A stretch of DNA of 64,000 bases from Patescibacteria group bacterium (GTDB taxonomy: Bacteria; Patescibacteriota; Minisyncoccia; Ryanbacterales; GWA2-47-10b): assembly GCA_038064855.1 (NCBI GenBank), contig JBBTSE010000002.1, forward strand, positions 72,815 to 136,814. The letters are read 5' to 3'. A program made the translations under genes and the position numbers. A model generated the notes under the pieces. That model saw only the letters and a list, made by a program, of their open reading frames with translations, ran no database searches and was not told the DNA's origin. This document shows, piece by piece, positions 36,693 to 47,166 of this stretch (within the stretch, counting starts at the first letter, position 1; every line of letters begins with the position of its first letter).

Positions 36693-37315
36693 CCAAAAAA
36701 GAATTGCTCGCGGACCTCGAGCAAGAAATGATAAAAGATACTACACTCCCGCTACAGGAAGCTCGCTTGGTTTTTGGTGAGGGCAACGAGGACGCCGAGG
36801 TTTTATTTATCGGCGAGGCACCCGGTTTTCACGAAGATCGGCTCGGCCGCCCGTTTGTTGGCAGGGGAGGCGAGCTTCTTACTGAATGTATCGGGAGCAT
36901 CGGTTGGTACCGAGAACAGGTATATATTACAAACATCGTAAAACGCAGACCACCAGAAAATAGAGATCCATTATCTGAAGAGATCGAGGCATACAAACCA
37001 TATCTCGCGCGTCAGATTGAAATTATAGGCCCGCGCATTATTGTACCGCTCGGCAGGTTTGCTATGAATTATTTTTTGCCTGACGCGAAAATTTCTCGTG
37101 ACCAAGGAAAAATATTTGTTGTCGGCAAGTACAAGGTGATGCCCATGTTTCATCCGGCGGCGGCGCTGCGCGGTACGACCGTGCTCAATCAATTTAAAGA
37201 AACATTTACAAAACTTCCTATGATCGTATCGGGCGAGGTTGAGGTAATAAAACCAGAAGTTACTCAAACAAAAAAATCTTCCGAAGAAGAATCGTCTCAA
37301 GTCTCTCTTTTCTAG
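36689..37315 (+). CDS. Uracil-DNA glycosylase family 4
   Basis: LFIGEAPG...GRPFVG...HPAAALR motifs of family 4 UDG. Confidence 0.85.
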   Translation: MTKKELLADLEQEMIKDTTLPLQEARLVFGEGNEDAEVLFIGEAPGFHEDRLGRPFVGRGGELLTECIGSIGWYREQVYITNIVKRRPPENRDPLSEEIEAYKPYLARQIEIIGPRIIVPLGRFAMNYFLPDAKISRDQGKIFVVGKYKVMPMFHPAAALRGTTVLNQFKETFTKLPMIVSGEVEVIKPEVTQTKKSSEEESSQVSLF

Positions 37316-37420
37316 CCAGCTCAAAAAAGCCTTAAAAATAGAGGGAAAGGGGGGACATTGACATATTAGTTTTTATATAGTATAATGCAGAAAGATCTTT
37401 AAATACTTACTTGCGAACTC

Positions 37421-37468
37421 TGCCACAGCAGAAAGCGCCTTATTCTTAGGACCTTTTCTGCTGTGGCA
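37421..37468 (+). promoter_or_regulatory. Long stem-loop (14-bp stem) upstream of the DGR target gene
   Basis: TGCCACAGCAGAAA...18-nt loop...TTTCTGCTGTGGCA. Confidence 0.4.
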
Positions 37469-37548
37469 AAGCCGACAGGCGGTAATGCCAGCCCGTGTTG
37501 GGCAACAGCGTTAATCTAACTGGCGAAAACCGAAAAGGAGAAAACGCC

Positions 37549-38169
37549 ATGGACCGTCAGACTGGAAAGCTTATCTCACGTATCGCGGAGAATCTCCCCG
37601 ACATGTCGTCGGACATCATGCAGGGCTGGATTGAGAACCCGCGGGCACTTCAGAAGTTCCTCGCGAGCCTCAGCCCACCTGAGACATCACCCGAGTTCCA
37701 AACCTGGAAGACCATCAAGCTCGGCACGGGCCTTAAGACCGCGGACGATTTCCGTCGAGTACTCCGTGACAGCTGCCGCATCGGCGACGGGGCTTCGGAC
37801 ATTCTCGGCAAGCCCGCCTTCACGGTGTGCGACACCGAGATGGAGCTCGATCTCGTTCGCCCCTCGGTGGCCGAGCTCGGCTTCAAGGATGGCGCCACCT
37901 TCAAGGACATCTGCGAGCGGGGTCTCGAGTACGGACTCAAGCTCTGTCCCGCAGAAGTCGGCCCCCAGCTCCGTCTCCAGTACAGGGACCAGCCGTTGGG
38001 TGAGTGGCTCATCATCGCCATGAAGGCCATCCGCTACTCGGCCGGCGACCTCAGCGTGTTCAGCGTGGAACGCTATGACAACGGGCTGTGGCTCAGCGGC
38101 TACGATGGCAGCCCTGATTACTTTTGGTTCAGCCTCGACCGTTTCGTGTTCGTTCGTCCTCGCAAGTAG
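37549..38169 (+). CDS. DGR target (variable) protein; the C-terminal ~44 codons are the variable repeat
   Basis: GC-rich ORF with AAGGAG 9 nt upstream of ATG 37549 and no signal peptide. The last 134 bp pair with the TR, and the VR ends 2 codons before the stop. Confidence 0.8.
   Translation: MDRQTGKLISRIAENLPDMSSDIMQGWIENPRALQKFLASLSPPETSPEFQTWKTIKLGTGLKTADDFRRVLRDSCRIGDGASDILGKPAFTVCDTEMELDLVRPSVAELGFKDGATFKDICERGLEYGLKLCPAEVGPQLRLQYRDQPLGEWLIIAMKAIRYSAGDLSVFSVERYDNGLWLSGYDGSPDYFWFSLDRFVFVRPRK
38031..38163 (+). repeat. DGR variable repeat (VR)
   Basis: Aligns over ~133 bp to 38532-38664. All but one of ~18 mismatches fall where the other copy has A, so this copy is the variable one. Confidence 0.85.
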
Positions 38170-38256
38170 TCCTCGGCGCTGGGAGCCTTGGTCTCTGACC
38201 TTGGAGCCTTGGTCCTTGGAGAAAATCATCAACGTTGGGAGATAACGCTAAGCTCC

Positions 38257-38296
38257 AGCCCCATATCTATCGTAGATATGGGGCTCTATTTTTATG
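38257..38296 (+). terminator. Rho-independent terminator / hairpin downstream of VR
   Basis: AGCCCCATATCTA-tcg-TAGATATGGGGCT followed by CTATTTTTAT. Confidence 0.65.
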
Positions 38297-38531
38297 CTAA
38301 AATAATTCTTGGCAGTAGGTGAATATGCGAGAGACCAAGGTTTCTTGCTACCGAACCCAGTATCCTTGCGCCGAGTGTATCCACGACCATGGTTTTGGGT
38401 AGGGTGGTGCATGAGAACTCTCAAAAAATGAAGATACTTGGTATTGCGTGCTAGGGCATTGAAGATGTCGAATACGATACAGCCCCGAGAGTATTCAAGG
38501 GGCAGTGGCACAGATGGCGCGCTTTACGTCT

Positions 38532-38664
38532 CCGCAACTCGGCCGGCAACCTCAACGTGTTCAGCGTGGAACACAATGACAACGGGCTGTGGCTCAACAG
38601 CAACAATGGCAACCCTGACAACTTTTGGAACAGCAACAACCGTTTCGTGTTCGTTCGTCCTCGC
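38532..38664 (+). repeat. DGR template repeat (TR)
   Basis: Non-coding copy with a stop upstream and no start. It carries AAC at every VR-variable codon position and a 24-nt adenine-free 3' segment identical to the VR. Confidence 0.85.
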
Positions 38665-38672
38665 AACTCTCT

Positions 38673-39059
38673 TCATTTCTCCCTCGCCTTTGGTAGGGAG
38701 TTTTGCTTGCCCTGAGGTTGCTCAAGAGATTTTGTAAGCTGCCCGTTCCATCCTCCGAGCATCTTGCCGATTTCATCTATTTTTACCGAAAGCGCGGTGT
38801 ATTTTTTGTTATCAAGAGATTTCGTTTCCCACAAAATCATAAGCAGTATCTTGAGCGTATCTGTTTTGCGTATCGCAAGACGAACATAGGGTCTTTTTTC
38901 CTCTCGTGCAAGGAAGCTTGCACTTGCAATCGCTTCGATACTTTCTACAAAGAGATTATCGATCCTTTGGCCAAGAGAATGTCGGTGAAGTTTTGGTAAC
39001 GCTTGGTAGTATTGATACCACAGCAAATATGTATTTTTTAGCTTCTGTAAAATTGGCAA
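38673..39059 (-). CDS. avd: Avd-like accessory variability determinant (four-helix-bundle / 23S rRNA IVS protein family)
   Basis: LPKLHRHSLGQRID...EAIA...EKRPYVRLAIRKTDTLKILLMILWE...KIDEIGKMLGGW matches the four-helix-bundle family and bAvd-like C-terminal (E)IG(K/R)xLGxW. TTG start. Opposite strand to TR and RT. Confidence 0.7.
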   Translation of the reverse strand: MPILQKLKNTYLLWYQYYQALPKLHRHSLGQRIDNLFVESIEAIASASFLAREEKRPYVRLAIRKTDTLKILLMILWETKSLDNKKYTALSVKIDEIGKMLGGWNGQLTKSLEQPQGKQNSLPKAREK

Positions 39060-39096
39060 AACCCGTTGGGGGGGGGCTTACCTGGTTAGTATTTTT

Positions 39097-40101
39097 ATGA
39101 AAAGGCAGTTCACTCATACCTATAATGATATCATCTCTCTCGAAAATCTTCTTGAGGCGTGGAGGGAGTTTATCAATGGAAAACGCGGGCGCATTGATGT
39201 CCAGTTGTTTGAGCGCGATTTAATGAAAAACATTATCGCGCTTCATATAGATCTTGTAGGTAAGACTTACAAACATTCATCTTACTACGCATTTAACATC
39301 TCAGATCCCAAACCAAGAAATATACACAAAGCGAGTGTCCGAGATAGATTACTGCATCATGCGTTATACAGAAAACTATACCCATTTTTCGATAGGACTT
39401 TTATAGACGATTCATATTCGTGCAGACTGGGTAAGGGAACGCACAAAGCGATGAATAGATTCCGCTCTTTTGCGCAAAAAACATCAAAAAATTATACCAA
39501 AACAGTTTGGGTTCTGAAGTGTGATATACGGAAGTTCTTTGCCTCAATAGATCAAGAGGCTCTCATTAAGGTTATCGAGAGTTATGTGCCAGACAAAGAT
39601 ATTATTTTGCTTATCTCCGAAGTTGTTGGTAGCTTTCACTCAACGCAAACTGGTGTCGGGCTGCCTCTTGGTAATCTCACAAGCCAGCTTCTCGTAAATA
39701 TTTATATGAACGAGTTTGACCAGTTTATGAAACATAAGCTTAAAGCAAAATATTATATTCGCTACGCCGATGATTTTGTTATTTTTTCTCAAGACAAAAA
39801 ATTGCTTGAAAGTATGATGTTACAAATTCAAAGTTTTCTTTGGGAGCGGCTACGATTGCAACTCCACCCCGATAAGGTATCGATACGCACGGTGGCCTCC
39901 GGCGTTGATTTTCTTGGGTGGGTGTATTTTCCAGATCATCGAGTGTTACGAACGGTTACAAAAAAGAGGATGTTTCGCAACATTGGTATAAGCCAAGGCA
40001 AAAAAGAAACGGTACAGTCGTATCTAGGAACGATACGTCATGGCAATAGCCAGAAGCTTAAAGGCAAAATTGAAGGTTTGATAAATAAAATTTCAGTATA
40101 A
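39097..40101 (+). CDS. DGR reverse transcriptase
   Basis: RT motifs: LLEAWREF N-terminus, GLPLGNLTSQLLVNIYMNEFD (LGxxxSQ, DGR hallmark) and YIRYADDFVIF (YxDD). Confidence 0.88.
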   Translation: MKRQFTHTYNDIISLENLLEAWREFINGKRGRIDVQLFERDLMKNIIALHIDLVGKTYKHSSYYAFNISDPKPRNIHKASVRDRLLHHALYRKLYPFFDRTFIDDSYSCRLGKGTHKAMNRFRSFAQKTSKNYTKTVWVLKCDIRKFFASIDQEALIKVIESYVPDKDIILLISEVVGSFHSTQTGVGLPLGNLTSQLLVNIYMNEFDQFMKHKLKAKYYIRYADDFVIFSQDKKLLESMMLQIQSFLWERLRLQLHPDKVSIRTVASGVDFLGWVYFPDHRVLRTVTKKRMFRNIGISQGKKETVQSYLGTIRHGNSQKLKGKIEGLINKISV

Positions 40102-40368
40102 AAAAGTTTGGGCCTGCACGCGTGATGCGGGCAGGCCATTGTGCGAGAGAGAATTGTGGAAGGTGCGGTGAGCAGGGGAACTGCAGGGAAGGGGGAGGTG
40201 TGTAGGTGACGCATGGGCGTCAGTGCCGGTGGTGGCCATTACGCTGACCTCGCTCTTCTCTGAATTTCGATGCTCTTAGGATCTGCCTTAAGTATAGAGT
40301 GTAAAAAGTTTTTATGATACCGTTCTCTGTGGAAAACTTTTTCCTGCGCTATACTATCCATATACGCT

Positions 40369-42096
40369 ATGAACAATAAGGATATTTCAGATACACTGTT
40401 TGCTATCGCCGAGTATTTTACGATATTTAATGAGCCGTTTAAGGCGCGCGCGTATGAAAAAGTGGCAGAGACGCTTTCAAGCTTCGAGAGTGATATTCGC
40501 GAACTTTATAAAAATGGCGGATGCAAAGCGCTCGAAGAAATCCCAGGTATCGGCAAGGGAATTGCACAAACAATTGAAGAATATATCAAGACTAGTCGTG
40601 TGCGCGAGCTCGACGCTATGCGCAAAAAAATGCCGGTCAATATGGAAGAGCTGCGCAGTATTGAAGGTATCGGCCCCAAGGCAATAAAAACACTTTATGA
40701 GAAATTAAAAGTAAAAGATGTAGCAAGCTTAAAGAAGGCAGCGCTCGCAGGCAAGATTAGTAAGCTTGAAAAGTTTGGCCTCAAGTCTGAACAAAAGATT
40801 TTAAAAGGCATCGAGTTTTTTGAATCATCACATGGGAGGTTTTTGTTGGGCGAGGCGTTGCCTATCGCACGACGTATCGCGGGTGACTTACGCAAAGTGA
40901 AGGGCGTATCGCGCGTGGAGATTGCGGGATCGATCAGGCGATGGCGCGAGACATCAGGTGATATTGATATCTTGGTAGAGGCGACAAATGCTGACGCGGT
41001 GATGAGCATGTTTGTATCGCGCGAAGATATTGCGCATGTCATCGCACACGGCGAGACAAAAAGTTCAGCGCGCATAAAGGACGGTATTGATGTCGATGTG
41101 CGTGTACTACCCAAAAAATCTTTTGGTGCGGCACTTATTTATTTTACGGGTTCGAAAGATCATAATGTTTTGCTTAGGTCCTTGGCGCTGAAGAAAAAAT
41201 TGAAACTCAACGAATACGGTTTATATCGTGGTACGAAAATAATCGCGGGAGCTACAGAAGAGGAAGTATACAAAGCGCTCGGTGTCTTTATGCCACCACC
41301 CGAACTACGCGAAGGAAAAGATGAGCTCGAAAAAAAATACGGCGGGGTTGTAGATTTTACAGATTTGTGCGGAGATTTTCAAACACAGACTGATTGGACC
41401 GATGGTGCCGATTCTTTAGAGGCGATGGTGCGAGAAGCAAAACGATTGGGTCATGAATACATCGCGATCACGGATCACACCAAGAGTCTCGCGATGACGG
41501 GCGGATCTGATGAAAAAAAATTGCGTAAACAAATACGAGAGATTGGCACGCTCAATAAAAAAATTTCCGGCATCACGATATTGAGTGGTGCAGAGGTAAA
41601 TATTATGCGCGATGGCACGCTTGATATTTCTGACGAAGTTTTATCAGAGCTTGATATCGTGGGTGCTGCTGTTCACTCGCATTTTAATTTGTCAGCAGAG
41701 GAGCAGACCGAGCGCATCATGCGTGCGATGTCCAGCCCGCATGTCGATATTCTTTTTCATCCGACGGGACGCGTTCTCAAAAAAAGAGATCCATATGCAA
41801 TTGATATTGATCGCATCATCGCGCATGCAGTCTCAACTGGCACGGTACTCGAGATTGATGCACATCCGTGGCGACTTGATTTGAAAGATGATCATATTAA
41901 ACGCGCGGTAGATGCGGGCGCGATGTTTAGTATTGATACGGACGCACACTCTCTTGCAGAACTCTCATATTTGGAGTATGGTATAGGACAAGCGCGACGC
42001 GCGGGTCTTCCCAAAAATCGTGTTCTCAATACGCTTGCATTGCCAGCGTTACAAAAATTTTTGGCGACCCCAAAACAAAAGCGTCATCTCTTATGA
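40369..42096 (+). CDS. DNA polymerase X family with C-terminal PHP domain
   Basis: N-terminal Pol-beta-like HhH/fingers (IPGIGKGIAQTIEE) and C-terminal PHP (ITDHT...). 575 aa. Confidence 0.88.
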   Translation: MNNKDISDTLFAIAEYFTIFNEPFKARAYEKVAETLSSFESDIRELYKNGGCKALEEIPGIGKGIAQTIEEYIKTSRVRELDAMRKKMPVNMEELRSIEGIGPKAIKTLYEKLKVKDVASLKKAALAGKISKLEKFGLKSEQKILKGIEFFESSHGRFLLGEALPIARRIAGDLRKVKGVSRVEIAGSIRRWRETSGDIDILVEATNADAVMSMFVSREDIAHVIAHGETKSSARIKDGIDVDVRVLPKKSFGAALIYFTGSKDHNVLLRSLALKKKLKLNEYGLYRGTKIIAGATEEEVYKALGVFMPPPELREGKDELEKKYGGVVDFTDLCGDFQTQTDWTDGADSLEAMVREAKRLGHEYIAITDHTKSLAMTGGSDEKKLRKQIREIGTLNKKISGITILSGAEVNIMRDGTLDISDEVLSELDIVGAAVHSHFNLSAEEQTERIMRAMSSPHVDILFHPTGRVLKKRDPYAIDIDRIIAHAVSTGTVLEIDAHPWRLDLKDDHIKRAVDAGAMFSIDTDAHSLAELSYLEYGIGQARRAGLPKNRVLNTLALPALQKFLATPKQKRHLL

Positions 42097-46725: not shown

Positions 46726-47166
46726 TTAGTATTTTTTCAATTCTCGAGAAATTGATCGTTTGACCTCGCGTTTTTTGATTGTTTCGCGCTTGTCAAAGTT
46801 TCGTTTTCCGCGTGCCACACCAAATTCTAGCTTGATGGTACGGGCTTTATTATACAACTTAATTGGTACCAATGTCAAGCCCTTCTCGTGTTCTTTGCCG
46901 GCAAGGTACGAAAGCTCTTTTTTGTGAAGCAATAGCTTGCGCGTACGGTCAGGATCATATGACGGCGGGGTATTGGGCTGTTGGTAGGGGGGGATGCTGG
47001 CACCCACCAAAAATGCCTCACCTCCGCGGATGATGACGCGCGCGCCCTCCAGATGAGCGTTGCCCGCGCGTATTGATTTAACCTCAAAGCCAAAAAGCTC
47101 GATGCCTGCCTCATAGGTTTCGAGTATCTCGTAGTCAAAGTGTACTTTTTTGTTTTGCGTAGTCAT
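46726..47166 (-). CDS. smpB: SsrA-binding protein SmpB
   Basis: KKVHFDYEILETYEAGIELFGFEVKS...LLLHKKE is the SmpB signature. Start taken at MTTQNK. Confidence 0.9.
   Translation of the reverse strand: MTTQNKKVHFDYEILETYEAGIELFGFEVKSIRAGNAHLEGARVIIRGGEAFLVGASIPPYQQPNTPPSYDPDRTRKLLLHKKELSYLAGKEHEKGLTLVPIKLYNKARTIKLEFGVARGKRNFDKRETIKKREVKRSISRELKKY

Follow-up and report, generated by a model that had tools for sequence, protein, structure and literature searches.

Where a DGR carries its avd gene on the opposite strand, wedged between the template repeat (TR) and the reverse transcriptase (RT), must its template RNA run antisense through avd, or is that RNA made as a transcript of its own? The question arises from a first-pass annotation of a 64-kb stretch of Patescibacteria DNA (here called the window), which offered both possibilities: a single TR-RT transcript that crosses avd, or a TR with its own promoter and 3' structure. 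Comparison with 66 to 80 related loci does not support the first of these but does support the second, through an extended -10 element, a structured leader, and a terminator-like hairpin. Taken as a whole, our account, which we hold to be likely, is of a DGR with the published B3 architecture, a separately transcribed template RNA whose fold bridges the TR, and an avd gene switched by a simple-sequence repeat.

RESULTS

The locus is an ordinary member of the CPR DGR clade

The features of the locus are collected in Table 1. The RT is recognized by RVT_1 (E = 1.7e-25), and its translation is of DGR type in containing LGNLTSQ, the DGR form of motif 4 ([LIV]GxxxSQ); NCBIfam is without a DGR-RT model, and the best match there is to a group II intron RT, below the cutoff. 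Searches of genome contigs returned 324 relatives of this RT, and among the best 80 of these 324, about 75 are labelled Patescibacteria/CPR or left unassigned, while 5 carry the bin labels Nitrospira, Gammaproteobacteria, or Bdellovibrionales.

The minus-strand ORF between TR and RT matches the Pfam family bAvd (PF22296) over its full length (positions 3 to 105 of a 107-position profile), with an E value of 2.4e-12 and a score that, at 47.7 bits, exceeds the gathering threshold of 40. It also matches the NCBIfam model DivGenRetAVD (NF033474; E = 2.3e-18, positions 1 to 102 of 104), at a score of 66.4 bits, which is under that model's cutoff of 80. All 2,242 Avd homologues that we recovered carry PF22296, and no solved chain was matched when Avd was searched against PDB sequences with phmmer at E values up to 1. 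The first-pass annotation had placed avd on the minus strand and proposed an HMM search of both strands; that search upholds the assignment, and the plus-strand ORFs at 38703-38999, 38906-39100, and 38438-38737, none of which has a Pfam match, were rejected as accessory genes.

The variable repeat (VR) and TR are direct repeats, 501 nt apart and 88% identical. Mismatches in 38030-38167 number 18; at 16 of them the TR copy has an A, and every one of these 16 affects the first or second codon position in the target ORF (37495-38169), the stop codon of which begins 2 nt past the VR. The same bias holds in related loci, where 1,122 of 1,190 VR/TR mismatches are at TR adenines (66 loci). The locus has, then, the two marks of a DGR in its repeats: a TR/VR pair that differs almost solely at TR adenines and a coding target gene whose 3' end holds the VR. 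The A-to-N differences would represent the historical footprint of mutagenic retrohoming, and the VR is identical in two other assemblies of the locus. The target gene itself has a G+C content of 60 to 64% and no match in Pfam or NCBIfam.

TABLE 1 Positions in the window of the features of the DGR locus
Feature	Position	Strand	Basis
Putative target-gene promoter, sigma-70-like consensus TTGACA-17-TATAAT	37358-37386	+	Promoter scan, 12/12 match
DGR target gene, 224 aa, G+C-rich	37495-38169	+	ORF list
VR at target gene 3' end	38030-38165	+	Direct repeat D1, 88% identity with TR
Intrinsic-terminator-like hairpin and T-run, predicted to close target transcript	38257-38285	+	13-bp stem, then CTATTTTTAT
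Predicted extended -10 element of template RNA, TGcTAAAAT	38295-38303	+	Positional conservation; consensus TTnTGnTAAAnTA
Structured 5' leader of template RNA	38311-38530	+	Conservation and covariation
Leader helices P1 and P2	P1, 38327-38348; P2, 38369-38409	+	
Leader bridge strand	38426-38452	+	
Leader helix P3	38441-38452 paired with 38516-38527	+	
Leader helices P4 and P5	P4, 38456-38468; P5, 38482-38503	+	
TR	38531-38666	+	Direct repeat and adenine-biased mismatches
Clamp helix 3' strand (last 3 nt of TR and tail)	38664-38678	+	Inverted repeat I8
Template-RNA terminator-like hairpin, CTCCCT...AGGGAG and TTTTGCTTG	38679-38709	+	Hairpin and U-tract across loci
avd core ORF, 128 aa from TTG, bAvd-family four-helix-bundle protein	38673-39059	-	PF22296, NF033474
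Predicted avd 5' extension, from ATG 39115-39117 through repeat tract	39060-39117	-	
Simple-sequence repeat, G9 (+) or C9 (avd sense), candidate phase-variation tract	39068-39076		
DGR RT, 334 aa	39097-40101	+	RVT_1 and LGNLTSQ motif

The geometry reported in the first-pass annotation, with TR and avd convergent and avd and RT divergent, is confirmed by the window coordinates, and only its distances need amendment. The plus-strand TR does not end at 38664, the homology being visible to 38666, so that the gap to the avd stop codon is 6 nt rather than 8 bp, and the TTG at 39059 lies 37 nt, not 38 bp, from the ATG of the RT. The start codon itself is questionable for reasons given below.

Among related Patescibacteria loci, surveyed for avd orientation as that annotation had suggested, avd is inverted directly upstream of the RT, at a distance of 26 to 105 nt, in all 78 with enough sequence; the order VR, TR, inverted avd, RT recurs in 66 of 66, the TR keeping its position and strand in each, with a median of 6 nt from the TR end to the avd stop codon (66 loci). 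The layout can be called atypical only in comparison with the Bordetella phage prototype. Architecture B3, so named by Wu et al. 2018 (NAR, PMC5758913), in which a reverse-strand avd lies between TR and RT [TR-(avd)-RT], accounts in their set for 90% of CPR DGRs, and this is the order of the locus. The B3 DGRs of CPR ("DGR clade 2" of Roux et al. 2021, PMC8144416) have an identical core order, with no difference in gene order from our locus, and share with it a target upstream on the TR strand, a target without recognizable domain, a chromosomal location, and a CPR/Patescibacteria host. The inverted avd is the published norm for CPR DGRs and nothing new; what matters is the anatomy behind the layout.

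A structured leader precedes the TR

Between the target gene and the TR lies a region of about 215 nt that is conserved across loci at 65 to 82% nucleotide identity and that folds into a set of helices, P1 to P5. Compensatory changes are present in 39 of the 44 predicted pairs, and 95.0% of cells are paired, compared with 72.3% in shuffles (none of 500 of which reaches the observed pairing) and 39 to 54% in slid controls. The covariation score is 0.764 versus 0.307, with 706 double changes versus 192 after shuffling, and the dominant G-U pairs fix the strand of the leader as plus. A profile built without the window matches the window at 38310-38528 (+) with an E value of 7e-56, its sole match in 64 kb, and finds a single match in each of 72 of the 80 loci; the profile used was an HMM. 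No Rfam family, including the RT-motif families, matches the leader (4,227 families, E up to 10), and the same search over 37300-40500 returned only chance miRNA-like matches, on a hairpin in the target 5' untranslated region.

The leader also pairs across the TR. Its positions 38426-38440 are complementary to 38664-38678, forming a clamp, the 3' strand of which includes, in antisense, the avd stop codon. Paired cells in the clamp amount to 77.7%, a level that none of 500 shuffles attains; the shuffles give 68.5% and slid controls 40 to 48%, and double-change cells number 65 against 24.9 (both comparisons over 55 loci); this support is weaker than that for P1 to P5, and two of the positions are mostly unpaired. 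Helix P3 ends 3 nt ahead of the TR. In the window the elements follow one another as clamp, P3, P4, and A-rich strand.

In the fold that we propose, a single leader strand (38426-38452) would pair with sequence just past the 3' end of the TR, in the clamp, and, directly adjacent, with sequence just before the 5' end of the TR, in P3, leaving the TR as a loop between two duplexes that lie side by side. Synthesis of cDNA would be primed in cis at the invariant TTGG junction (38438-38441), copy the TR, and stop at P3, this choice of priming site being made purely by analogy with the Bordetella phage DGR RNA.

The template RNA is predicted to end within avd

Upstream of the leader, the aligned loci show the 3' halves of hairpins equivalent to 38257-38285, along with T-runs, ahead of a -10 box. 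Among the 52 loci with sequence at this site, TAnnnT is present in 51 and the extended form TGnTAnnnT in 37. Past the TR, a strict rule detects a hairpin followed by a U-tract in 57 of 66 loci, and inspection by eye adds 8 of the other 9; the element is placed 25 to 57 nt after the TR in nearly all loci, with stems that covary and loops that vary. The window has such a G+C-rich hairpin at 38679-38700, followed by TTTTGCTT, and termination is predicted there; a terminator scan missed it because of its 10-nt loop, and it also escaped the strict rule. The whole element (38679-38709) is antisense to only the last ~10 codons of avd. Conserved Sp-like RNA downstream of the TR was considered and rejected, the terminator hairpin being all that is conserved there beyond the avd coding constraint.

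These elements suggest that the template RNA is an independent plus-strand transcript of ~400 nt, which would start at the conserved extended -10 just past the target-gene terminator, proceed through the ~215-nt structured leader and the TR, and finish with the terminator-like hairpin, so that its overlap with the convergent avd would be confined to the final codons of that gene. With a putative promoter and terminator of its own, as well as a leader and clamp, such an RNA need not run antisense through avd, although read-through of the terminator into avd antisense may occur. Stem-loops just downstream of the TR have been described as Avd-binding elements by Handa et al. (bioRxiv 10.1101/2023.10.23.563531), a reading that differs from, yet is compatible with, that of a terminator.

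Two other readings of this region have to be weighed. That a single plus-strand transcript extends from TR to RT, antisense through the whole of avd, with antisense avd taking the role of the Bordetella Sp, seems to us quite improbable. The arrangement of TR and RT on one strand does resemble that of the prototype, where Sp sits between TR and brt, stem-loops were reported when Handa et al. examined the 100 nt downstream of the TR in Avd-containing DGRs, including those of CPR, and terminators are rarely 100% efficient. Nearly every locus, however, has the hairpin and U-tract shortly after the TR, past which the downstream sequence is avd coding sequence alone; the conserved, covarying RNA lies upstream of the TR and not downstream, and both duplexes that hold the TR ends draw on it; and -10-like elements of its own precede the RT in many loci. 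It is hardly credible that the 215-nt region, rather than being template RNA, serves the target gene as a 3' untranslated or regulatory element or encodes a small protein. The region does follow the target gene directly, a stop-free stretch of at least 60 codons in some frame is present in it in about half of the loci, and the window contains an 87-aa minus-strand ORF at 38248-38511; but a terminator and the conserved -10 box split it from the target gene, and its strong covariation comes with G-U pairs that fix the plus strand. Moreover, it lacks 3-nt periodicity (0.97/1.02/0.97 over the codon positions, versus 1.51/0.69/0.49 in the RT), on which ground we rejected the small protein gene, and the position of P3 against the TR, together with a clamp reaching across it, is difficult to account for if leader and TR belong to separate molecules.

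A slippery repeat lies at the probably overlapping starts of avd and RT

The first-pass annotation started avd at TTG 39059, a choice that the alignment makes doubtful: the aligned codon 1 is a start codon in 37 of 79 loci and a non-start codon in 42, and residues 1 to 12 of Avd are conserved even though codon 1 is often not a start. A longer ORF runs from the ATG at 39117 through the G9 tract (39068-39076) and overlaps the RT by 21 nt, its 5' extension being antisense to the first 7 codons of the RT and, with G9, out of frame. A tract of G8 or G11 in the window would give MSELPFHKNTNQVSPP(P)QRV-LPILQK, and for Avd homologues with 86% identity the annotated protein reads MSELPFHKNSTSTPPQRV running into LPILQK. 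Among the best 120 of the 2,242 Avd homologues, 61 have an N-terminal extension, in 53 of which it includes PP, and some of the extended forms have HTHT or RERE. TTG 39059 is thus probably not the true start, and the ORF would begin upstream of the G-tract, overlapping the RT.

Long G/C runs are concentrated at this site. In 610 kb of related loci, 62 of the 71 G/C runs of at least 7 nt are at the avd-RT junction, and the G9 tract is one of only two such runs in the 64-kb window; other loci have tetra- or dinucleotide repeats in the same place. The length of the repeat varies among close relatives, as in contingency loci with a repeat in the 5' coding or promoter region: two loci with 100% identical flanks (L017 and L018) have G11 and G9, respectively, and within clusters of Avd proteins at 90% identity the tract differs in length, occurs in three frames, and encodes PPP or PPPP. 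All three assemblies of our locus show G9, and no within-population variation was seen, G9 being present in every returned contig that encodes an identical RT. All 6 loci without a repeat (which make up only ~3 lineages) have an upstream ATG in frame, as do 18 of 72 loci with one; the latter share, 25%, is close to chance, and frame counts alone are no proof of an upstream start.

We propose that avd and RT are transcribed divergently with overlapping 5' coding ends, and that the avd ORF starts at the ATG antisense to RT codon 7 and traverses the simple-sequence repeat. Because repeat length sets the reading frame, the repeat would act as an ON/OFF switch of avd, and a locus with G9 would be OFF or confined to weak initiation at TTG.

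The main competitor to this switch, which we consider unlikely, is that avd does start at TTG 39059 and that the G-tract, being outside the ORF, is at most a variable spacer tuning the transcription of RT, avd, or both. TTG is a legitimate start codon and occupies this position in 36 of 79 loci; in the window it yields the 128-aa form that NCBI annotates and could initiate Avd whatever the tract. Among poly-G loci, TAnnnT occurs within 2 nt after the tract in 21 of 47, and in 13 of 47 the tract, TAnnnT, ~7 nt (5 to 9 allowed), and the ATG of the RT follow in succession, with a -35-like TGGCAA/TTGGCA upstream that would place the tract in the spacer of an RT promoter; the (TA)n promoter of Haemophilus hifA/hifB provides a model for a repeat as variable spacer in a divergent promoter. 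Against such a start, the aligned codon is TTA, CTN, ATH, or GTT in the 42 loci without a start codon, though residues 1 to 12 are conserved, many database homologues have a reading frame that is uninterrupted from an upstream ATG across the tract (with PP, HTHT, or RERE peptides), and the repeat units are all non-multiples of three and all stop-free in the avd sense. Nor does the window have the tract/-10/ATG geometry, and a leaderless RT promoter of this form, seen in the 13 relatives, was rejected for our locus. Frame switching and promoter spacing are, in any case, not mutually exclusive. It is very improbable that the junction repeat arose as an artefact of sequencing or assembly, or that it is a mutational hotspot of neutral character that regulates nothing. 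Sequencing of homopolymers is prone to error, one contig (L004) opens at the site with an artefact-like run of 52 C, and the in-frame fraction is near chance; yet the tract appears at one site in ~70 independent assemblies from many projects, with unique flanks, other lineages substitute tetra- or dinucleotide repeats, and most of the long G/C runs in the 610 kb are there. That some slippery repeat has been kept at a single site over deep divergence speaks for selection.

DISCUSSION

The DGR of Bordetella phage BPP-1 (mtd-avd-TR-Sp-brt; Handa 2018, PMC6182149) shares with the locus A-specific mutagenesis, a pair of Avd and RT, and a target whose 3' end contains the VR. Cryo-EM of the BPP-1 DGR RNA by Handa et al. 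places a template:primer duplex beside a cPRT Stop duplex, and the pairings given in their preprint (10.1101/2023.10.23.563531) are Sp47-56:TR117-129, then 2 nt, then Sp59-70:avd369-379, a stem-loop, and adenosines. In both RNAs, then, two adjacent duplexes on one bridging strand hold the ends of the TR, a feature that covariation supports at our locus, and next to the duplexes come a short stem-loop and A-rich nucleotides that are unpaired. The locus differs in that avd is inverted and downstream of the TR, filling the interval between TR and RT in which BPP-1 has its structured Sp (the Sp motif is Rfam RT-10), and in that the bridging strand is 5' of the TR, a circular permutation of BPP-1, the bridge of which (Sp) is 3' of the TR. 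Likewise, the strand of the Stop duplex is non-coding leader at the locus but the 3' end of avd in BPP-1, and the locus Avd has no sequence-level match to any solved chain. The locus RNA looks like one that works as the BPP-1 RNA does, by analogy, while belonging to neither its sequence family nor its topological family.

If borne out, a naturally permuted DGR RNA constitutes an independent test of the cis-priming/"cPRT Stop" model, which derives from a single phage element. For this clade, which spans hundreds of species, searches for RNA elements solely downstream of the TR, as carried out for CPR DGRs, are misplaced.

Phase variation by slipped-strand mispairing is a property of poly-G/C tracts in Campylobacter and Neisseria genes and of tetranucleotide repeats in Haemophilus. 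The avd gene resembles these contingency loci in having, toward the 5' end of the ORF, a repeat with units of one, two, or four nucleotides, unit lengths that are not multiples of three, repeat numbers that vary between near-identical sequences, and coexisting in-frame and out-of-frame alleles. It departs from them in that the gene predicted to be switched encodes a component of mutagenesis machinery rather than being a surface or restriction-modification gene, in its CPR host, and in the location of the tract inside a head-to-head overlap with the RT.

The searched parts of PMC5758913 and PMC8144416 make no mention of the structured leader, the clamp, the overlap of the terminator with avd, or the junction repeat. 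No report of the leader or the junction repeat was found in the searchable literature, a scope that does not extend to Paul et al. 2017 (Nat Microbiol), the principal paper on CPR DGRs, which may describe some of these features, and nothing relevant turned up in the literature searched for DGRs in conjunction with phase variation, homopolymers, or slippage. We give about even chances to a reading in which CPR (B3) DGRs have two clade-wide properties that may be undescribed, namely, a circularly permuted template RNA and a phase-variable mutagenesis machinery. As to the former, a protein-binding and priming scaffold of ~215 nt, 5' of the TR, may clamp both TR ends in a transcript that ends inside the convergent avd. 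As to the latter, slippage may switch Avd, and hence DGR activity, in subpopulations, with the locus at hand caught OFF (G9).

Were the slippery repeat to gate Avd, targeted hypermutation would be under stochastic ON/OFF control, which would help to explain how CPR bacteria with their tiny genomes tolerate a mutator, and many metagenomic DGRs scored as "intact" or "broken" would simply be in one phase or the other.

Beyond the RT, the window continues with a GC-rich stretch (40102-40368), which we considered and rejected as a part of the DGR core, its conservation being limited to the closest relative (L001).

A complete DGR of known architecture

A complete DGR is present in region 37495-40101 of the window. 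Its two 136-nt direct repeats lie 501 nt apart and are 88% identical, and of the 18 differences in 38030-38167, 16 are at adenines of the downstream copy, each of them in codon position 1 or 2 of the ORF at 37495-38169 (the target gene). The adenines and codon positions identify the upstream copy as the variable repeat (VR) and the downstream copy as the template repeat (TR). The first-pass annotation had placed avd on the minus strand, convergent with TR and divergent from RT, and this arrangement holds: the ORF matches the Pfam Avd profile above its curated cutoff, plus-strand ORFs within the avd interval gave no family match in a family profile search, and the gap from TR homology to the avd stop is 6 nt. 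The same ORF aligns over its full length to NCBIfam DivGenRetAVD (E 2.3e-18, 66.4 bits), under the model cutoff of 80. By every criterion that sequence can address, the element is a DGR family member of architecture B3, i.e., TR-(avd)-RT with an inverted avd, in the cassette classification of Wu et al. 2018 (PMC5758913), who found this architecture in 90% of CPR DGRs.

Features of the DGR locus (window coordinates)
Feature	Position	Strand	Basis or remark
VR	38030-38165	+	direct repeat, mismatch pattern
Terminator-like hairpin, strong, ending target gene	38257-38285	+	sequence scan
Extended -10 box TGcTAAAAT	38295-38303	+	directly after target-gene hairpin; position conserved
Helix P1	38327-38348	+	
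Helix P2	38369-38409	+	
Clamp	38426-38440 (leader) with 38664-38678 (last three TR nt and tail)	+	first seen as inverted repeat I8
Helix P3	38441-38452 with 38516-38527	+	
Helix P4	38456-38468	+	
Helix P5	38482-38503	+	
TR	38531-38666	+	direct repeat, adenines at mismatches
avd ORF	38673-39059	-	Pfam bAvd PF22296, E 2.4e-12, 47.7 bits (curated cutoff 40)
Post-TR hairpin	38679-38700, then TTTTGCTTG	+	antisense to last ~10 avd codons
Poly-G tract G9	39068-39076		between avd TTG and RT
RT ORF	39097-40101	+	RVT_1 E 1.7e-25; DGR-type LGNLTSQ motif

The layout had also been described as unusual, a view that related loci contradict. Searching the window RT against one genome per species found 324 relatives, and the best 80 of these, 63-72% identical to the window RT, were compared; they are mostly labelled Patescibacteria/CPR MAGs or SAGs, or unclassified bacteria, with bin labels of Nitrospira, Gammaproteobacteria, or Bdellovibrionales on five. 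An Avd homologue (window Avd as query) lies opposite the RT strand, 26-105 nt upstream of RT, in 78 of the 80 loci; a contig end truncates the other two. In all 66 loci with a callable pair, VR precedes TR and both share the strand of RT; among these, start-to-start spacing is 383-592 nt, the median distance from TR end to avd stop codon is 6 nt (the two overlap in some loci), and 1122 of 1190 pooled VR/TR mismatches occur at TR adenines. On this comparison, the window locus is typical of a large class that is uniform in layout and has been described before, and CPR DGRs form a separate clade 2 in Roux et al. 2021 (PMC8144416).

Proposed promoter, leader, and 3' end of the template RNA

Two possibilities had been raised for the template RNA: a TR-to-RT transcript running antisense through avd, or a TR with its own promoter and 3' structure. 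Comparative data speak against the former and for the latter. The -10 box upstream of TR has the consensus TTnTGnTAAAnTA in the alignment of related loci; of 52 loci, 51 have TAnnnT and 37 the longer TGnTAnnnT. At the other end, related loci carry a G+C-rich hairpin 10-15 nt past TR, with a covarying stem and a variable loop, followed by GTTTTGTTTT-like runs; a strict rule recovers hairpin and run in 57 of 66 loci, and inspection by eye recovers them in 8 of the remaining 9. Unlike in the window, avd ends short of this hairpin in other loci. The most economical reading of these sequences is that the template RNA is a separate transcript of ~400 nt whose overlap with avd is confined to its 3' tip.

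Between the -10 box and TR lies a leader of ~220 nt with 65-82% nucleotide identity, whereas the RT proteins of the same loci are only 63-72% identical. RNAalifold, applied to a plain MAFFT alignment, predicts 44 pairs, and compensatory changes occur at 39. Pairing holds in 95.0% of cells (72.3% in column shuffles, 39-54% with slid partners), with 706 double-change cells (192 shuffled) and a covariation score of 0.764 (0.307 shuffled), values reached by none of 500 shuffles. Pair positions dominated by G-U fix the leader strand as plus, and the leader has no codon periodicity (column entropy at positions modulo 3 of 0.97/1.02/0.97, versus 1.51/0.69/0.49 in the RT control). A profile built without the window has one match in it (38310-38528, plus strand, E 7e-56) and a single match per locus in 72 of the 80, without exception on the RT strand; no Rfam family matches the leader, nor do the RT-associated motifs that Weinberg et al. 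2017 described.

Helices P1 and P2 resemble each other, each having a ...G(A/G)YY tetraloop-like cap (often UACG, CACG, or CAAG) followed by GGYTT, as well as a conserved G-U pair and a bulge. They may be a duplicated pair of "grapples" for protein binding, comparable to the stem-loops with which the phage RNA contacts Avd and RT.

A long-range clamp and comparison with Bordetella phage RNA

The clamp, a helix between the leader and the TR 3' end plus the tail beyond it, is paired at 77.7% across 55 distinct loci (68.5% in shuffles, 40-48% in slid controls), with 65 double-change cells versus 24.9, a value that none of 500 shuffles attained; in one locus (L064), for example, AAATTGAATGCGTTG is paired with CACGCATACGATTT. 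Because the 5' strands of the clamp and P3 are contiguous, a single leader strand would juxtapose both TR flanks (the sequence just after TR and that 3 nt before it), with TR looped out. T38438, G38440, and G38441, at the clamp/P3 junction, are invariant in 66 sequences.

In the cryo-EM structure of the Bordetella phage RNP (Handa et al., 10.1101/2023.10.23.563531), Sp47-56:TR117-129 forms the template:primer duplex; 2 nt on, Sp59-70 pairs with an upstream avd segment as the "cPRT Stop," past which come a short stem-loop and unpaired adenosines. The window RNA follows the same bridge logic in the order clamp, P3, short P4 stem-loop, and conserved A-rich single strand. The difference is topological, in that the bridge is 5' of TR in the window and 3' of TR in the phage, in effect a circular permutation. 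The window RNA would function in the manner of the Bordetella DGR RNA without belonging to its family: Sp is absent from the interval between TR and RT, and Rfam gives no match. If the analogy holds, cDNA synthesis would be cis-primed at the clamp/P3 junction, run through TR, and halt at P3. The RNA-element search of Handa et al., which included CPR DGRs, covered the 40 nt before TR and the 100 nt after it; for the B3 clade, such a span would include the terminator hairpin and miss the leader.

Another assembly of the window locus (ERZ1292643, Hainich H51 sample) differs at only two positions in 6 kb, both in the leader RNA: 38511 (C to T) and 38517 (G to A), the second disrupting P3 pair 38451-38517. 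VR is identical in the two assemblies, so their comparison gives no sign of recent DGR activity.

A simple-sequence repeat at the avd-RT junction

The 38 bp originally assigned to the avd-RT interval contain the G9 tract, but the TTG start from which they were counted is probably not the true one. A simple-sequence repeat occupies the same junction site in nearly every related locus, as poly-G of 7-13 in ~62 loci and otherwise as (TTGA)n, (GGTT)n, (GGCT)n, (GTTC)n, or (CT)n. The related loci total 609,595 nt and contain 71 G/C runs of at least 7, of which 62 fall within the ~40-nt junction, as do all multi-nucleotide repeats of at least 6 units; the 64-kb window has one such G/C run besides the junction G9. 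Tract length evolves faster than all surrounding sequence: it differs in 5 of 6 pairs with at least 90% flank identity, including one (L017 and L018) with identical 200-nt flanks and tracts of G11 versus G9.

The avd ORF probably spans the tract. Residues 1-12 of Avd (LP[VIL]LxKxKxxYxLW) show conservation beginning with the first aligned codon, which is a start codon (TTG/ATG) in 37 of 79 loci and TTA, CTN, ATH, or GTT in 42. Upstream of the tract, every locus has a minus-strand ATG, the antisense of a conserved His codon near the RT N terminus, which is in the avd frame in all 6 repeat-less loci and in 18 of 72 repeat-bearing loci. Among the best 120 of 2242 database entries for Avd homologues, an N-terminal extension is called in 61, with PP(P) in 53 and HTHT or RERE in some, i.e., translated repeats; examples at 86% identity read MSELPFHKNSTSTPPQRV followed by LPILQK. 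Single 90%-identity clusters contain the upstream peptide in all three frames, PPP versus PPPP, and truncated calls. With G8 or G11, the window avd translates as MSELPFHKNTNQVSPP(P)QRV-LPILQK; G9, the length in the window and in two further assemblies, breaks the frame, and a stop closes the avd frame immediately ahead of the tract. Avd could instead initiate at TTG in the window locus, independently of the tract, and the in-frame fraction of the upstream ATG is near chance. Taken together, these sequences make it most likely that avd starts at 39117, overlapping RT head-to-head by 21 nt, with its frame set by repeat length, an arrangement characteristic of phase-variation switches. A transcriptional effect may come in addition, since some relatives have the tract between a -35-like and a -10-like element of RT.

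The junction tract appears to interrupt assemblies, as one contig begins with a C52 run (L004, 1-52) and another breaks near a G11 ~15 nt upstream of RT (L075, 97-107); such breaks could make B3 DGRs seem incomplete in surveys. Outside the DGR, there is a G7 at window 46987-46993, and one genome has G9-G10 tracts (L017, 3404-3413 and 5253-5262; L018, 5042-5050 and 6890-6899); these small genomes may contain other repeat-controlled genes.

The inverted-avd architecture as originally reported is already known and adds little; more is added by the anatomy common to the locus and its relatives, in which an independent structured leader, a permuted bridge, and a repeat-gated avd appear to be clade-wide. 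These three were not found in Wu 2018, Roux 2021, the Handa papers, or full-text literature searches, a set without the key CPR paper (Paul et al. 2017), so that their novelty is unproven.

Target gene and flanking sequence

The target gene is far richer in G+C than the DGR's own genes (60-64% at 37495-38169 versus ~39-42% at 38673-40101), a shift that spans the whole gene, beyond VR, and recurs in 62 of 62 related loci (medians: target, 58%; RT, 40%; avd, 42%). Its 5' UTR contains a long near-perfect hairpin (37410-37479, stem 37418-37434/37455-37471) between a 12/12 consensus promoter (37358-37386) and the start codon. About 9 related loci retain parts of this hairpin upstream of their target genes, and it may regulate the target gene; its miRNA matches in Rfam are spurious. 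Straight after the VR stop codon, at 38172-38213, a tandem 21-nt direct repeat (CTCGGCGCTGGGAGCCTTGGT/CTCTGACCTTGGAGCCTTGGT) occupies the position that a GC-rich hairpin promoting retrohoming has in Bordetella-type DGRs; the tandem repeat is conserved weakly and in one other locus only. Downstream of RT, 40102-40270 opens with a terminator-like hairpin, is G-rich (GC skew up to +0.42), and is predicted to fold strongly (MFE of -74 kcal/mol over 169 nt); its conservation is limited to L001, the closest relative (84% identity), so it is probably lineage-specific rather than part of the DGR core.
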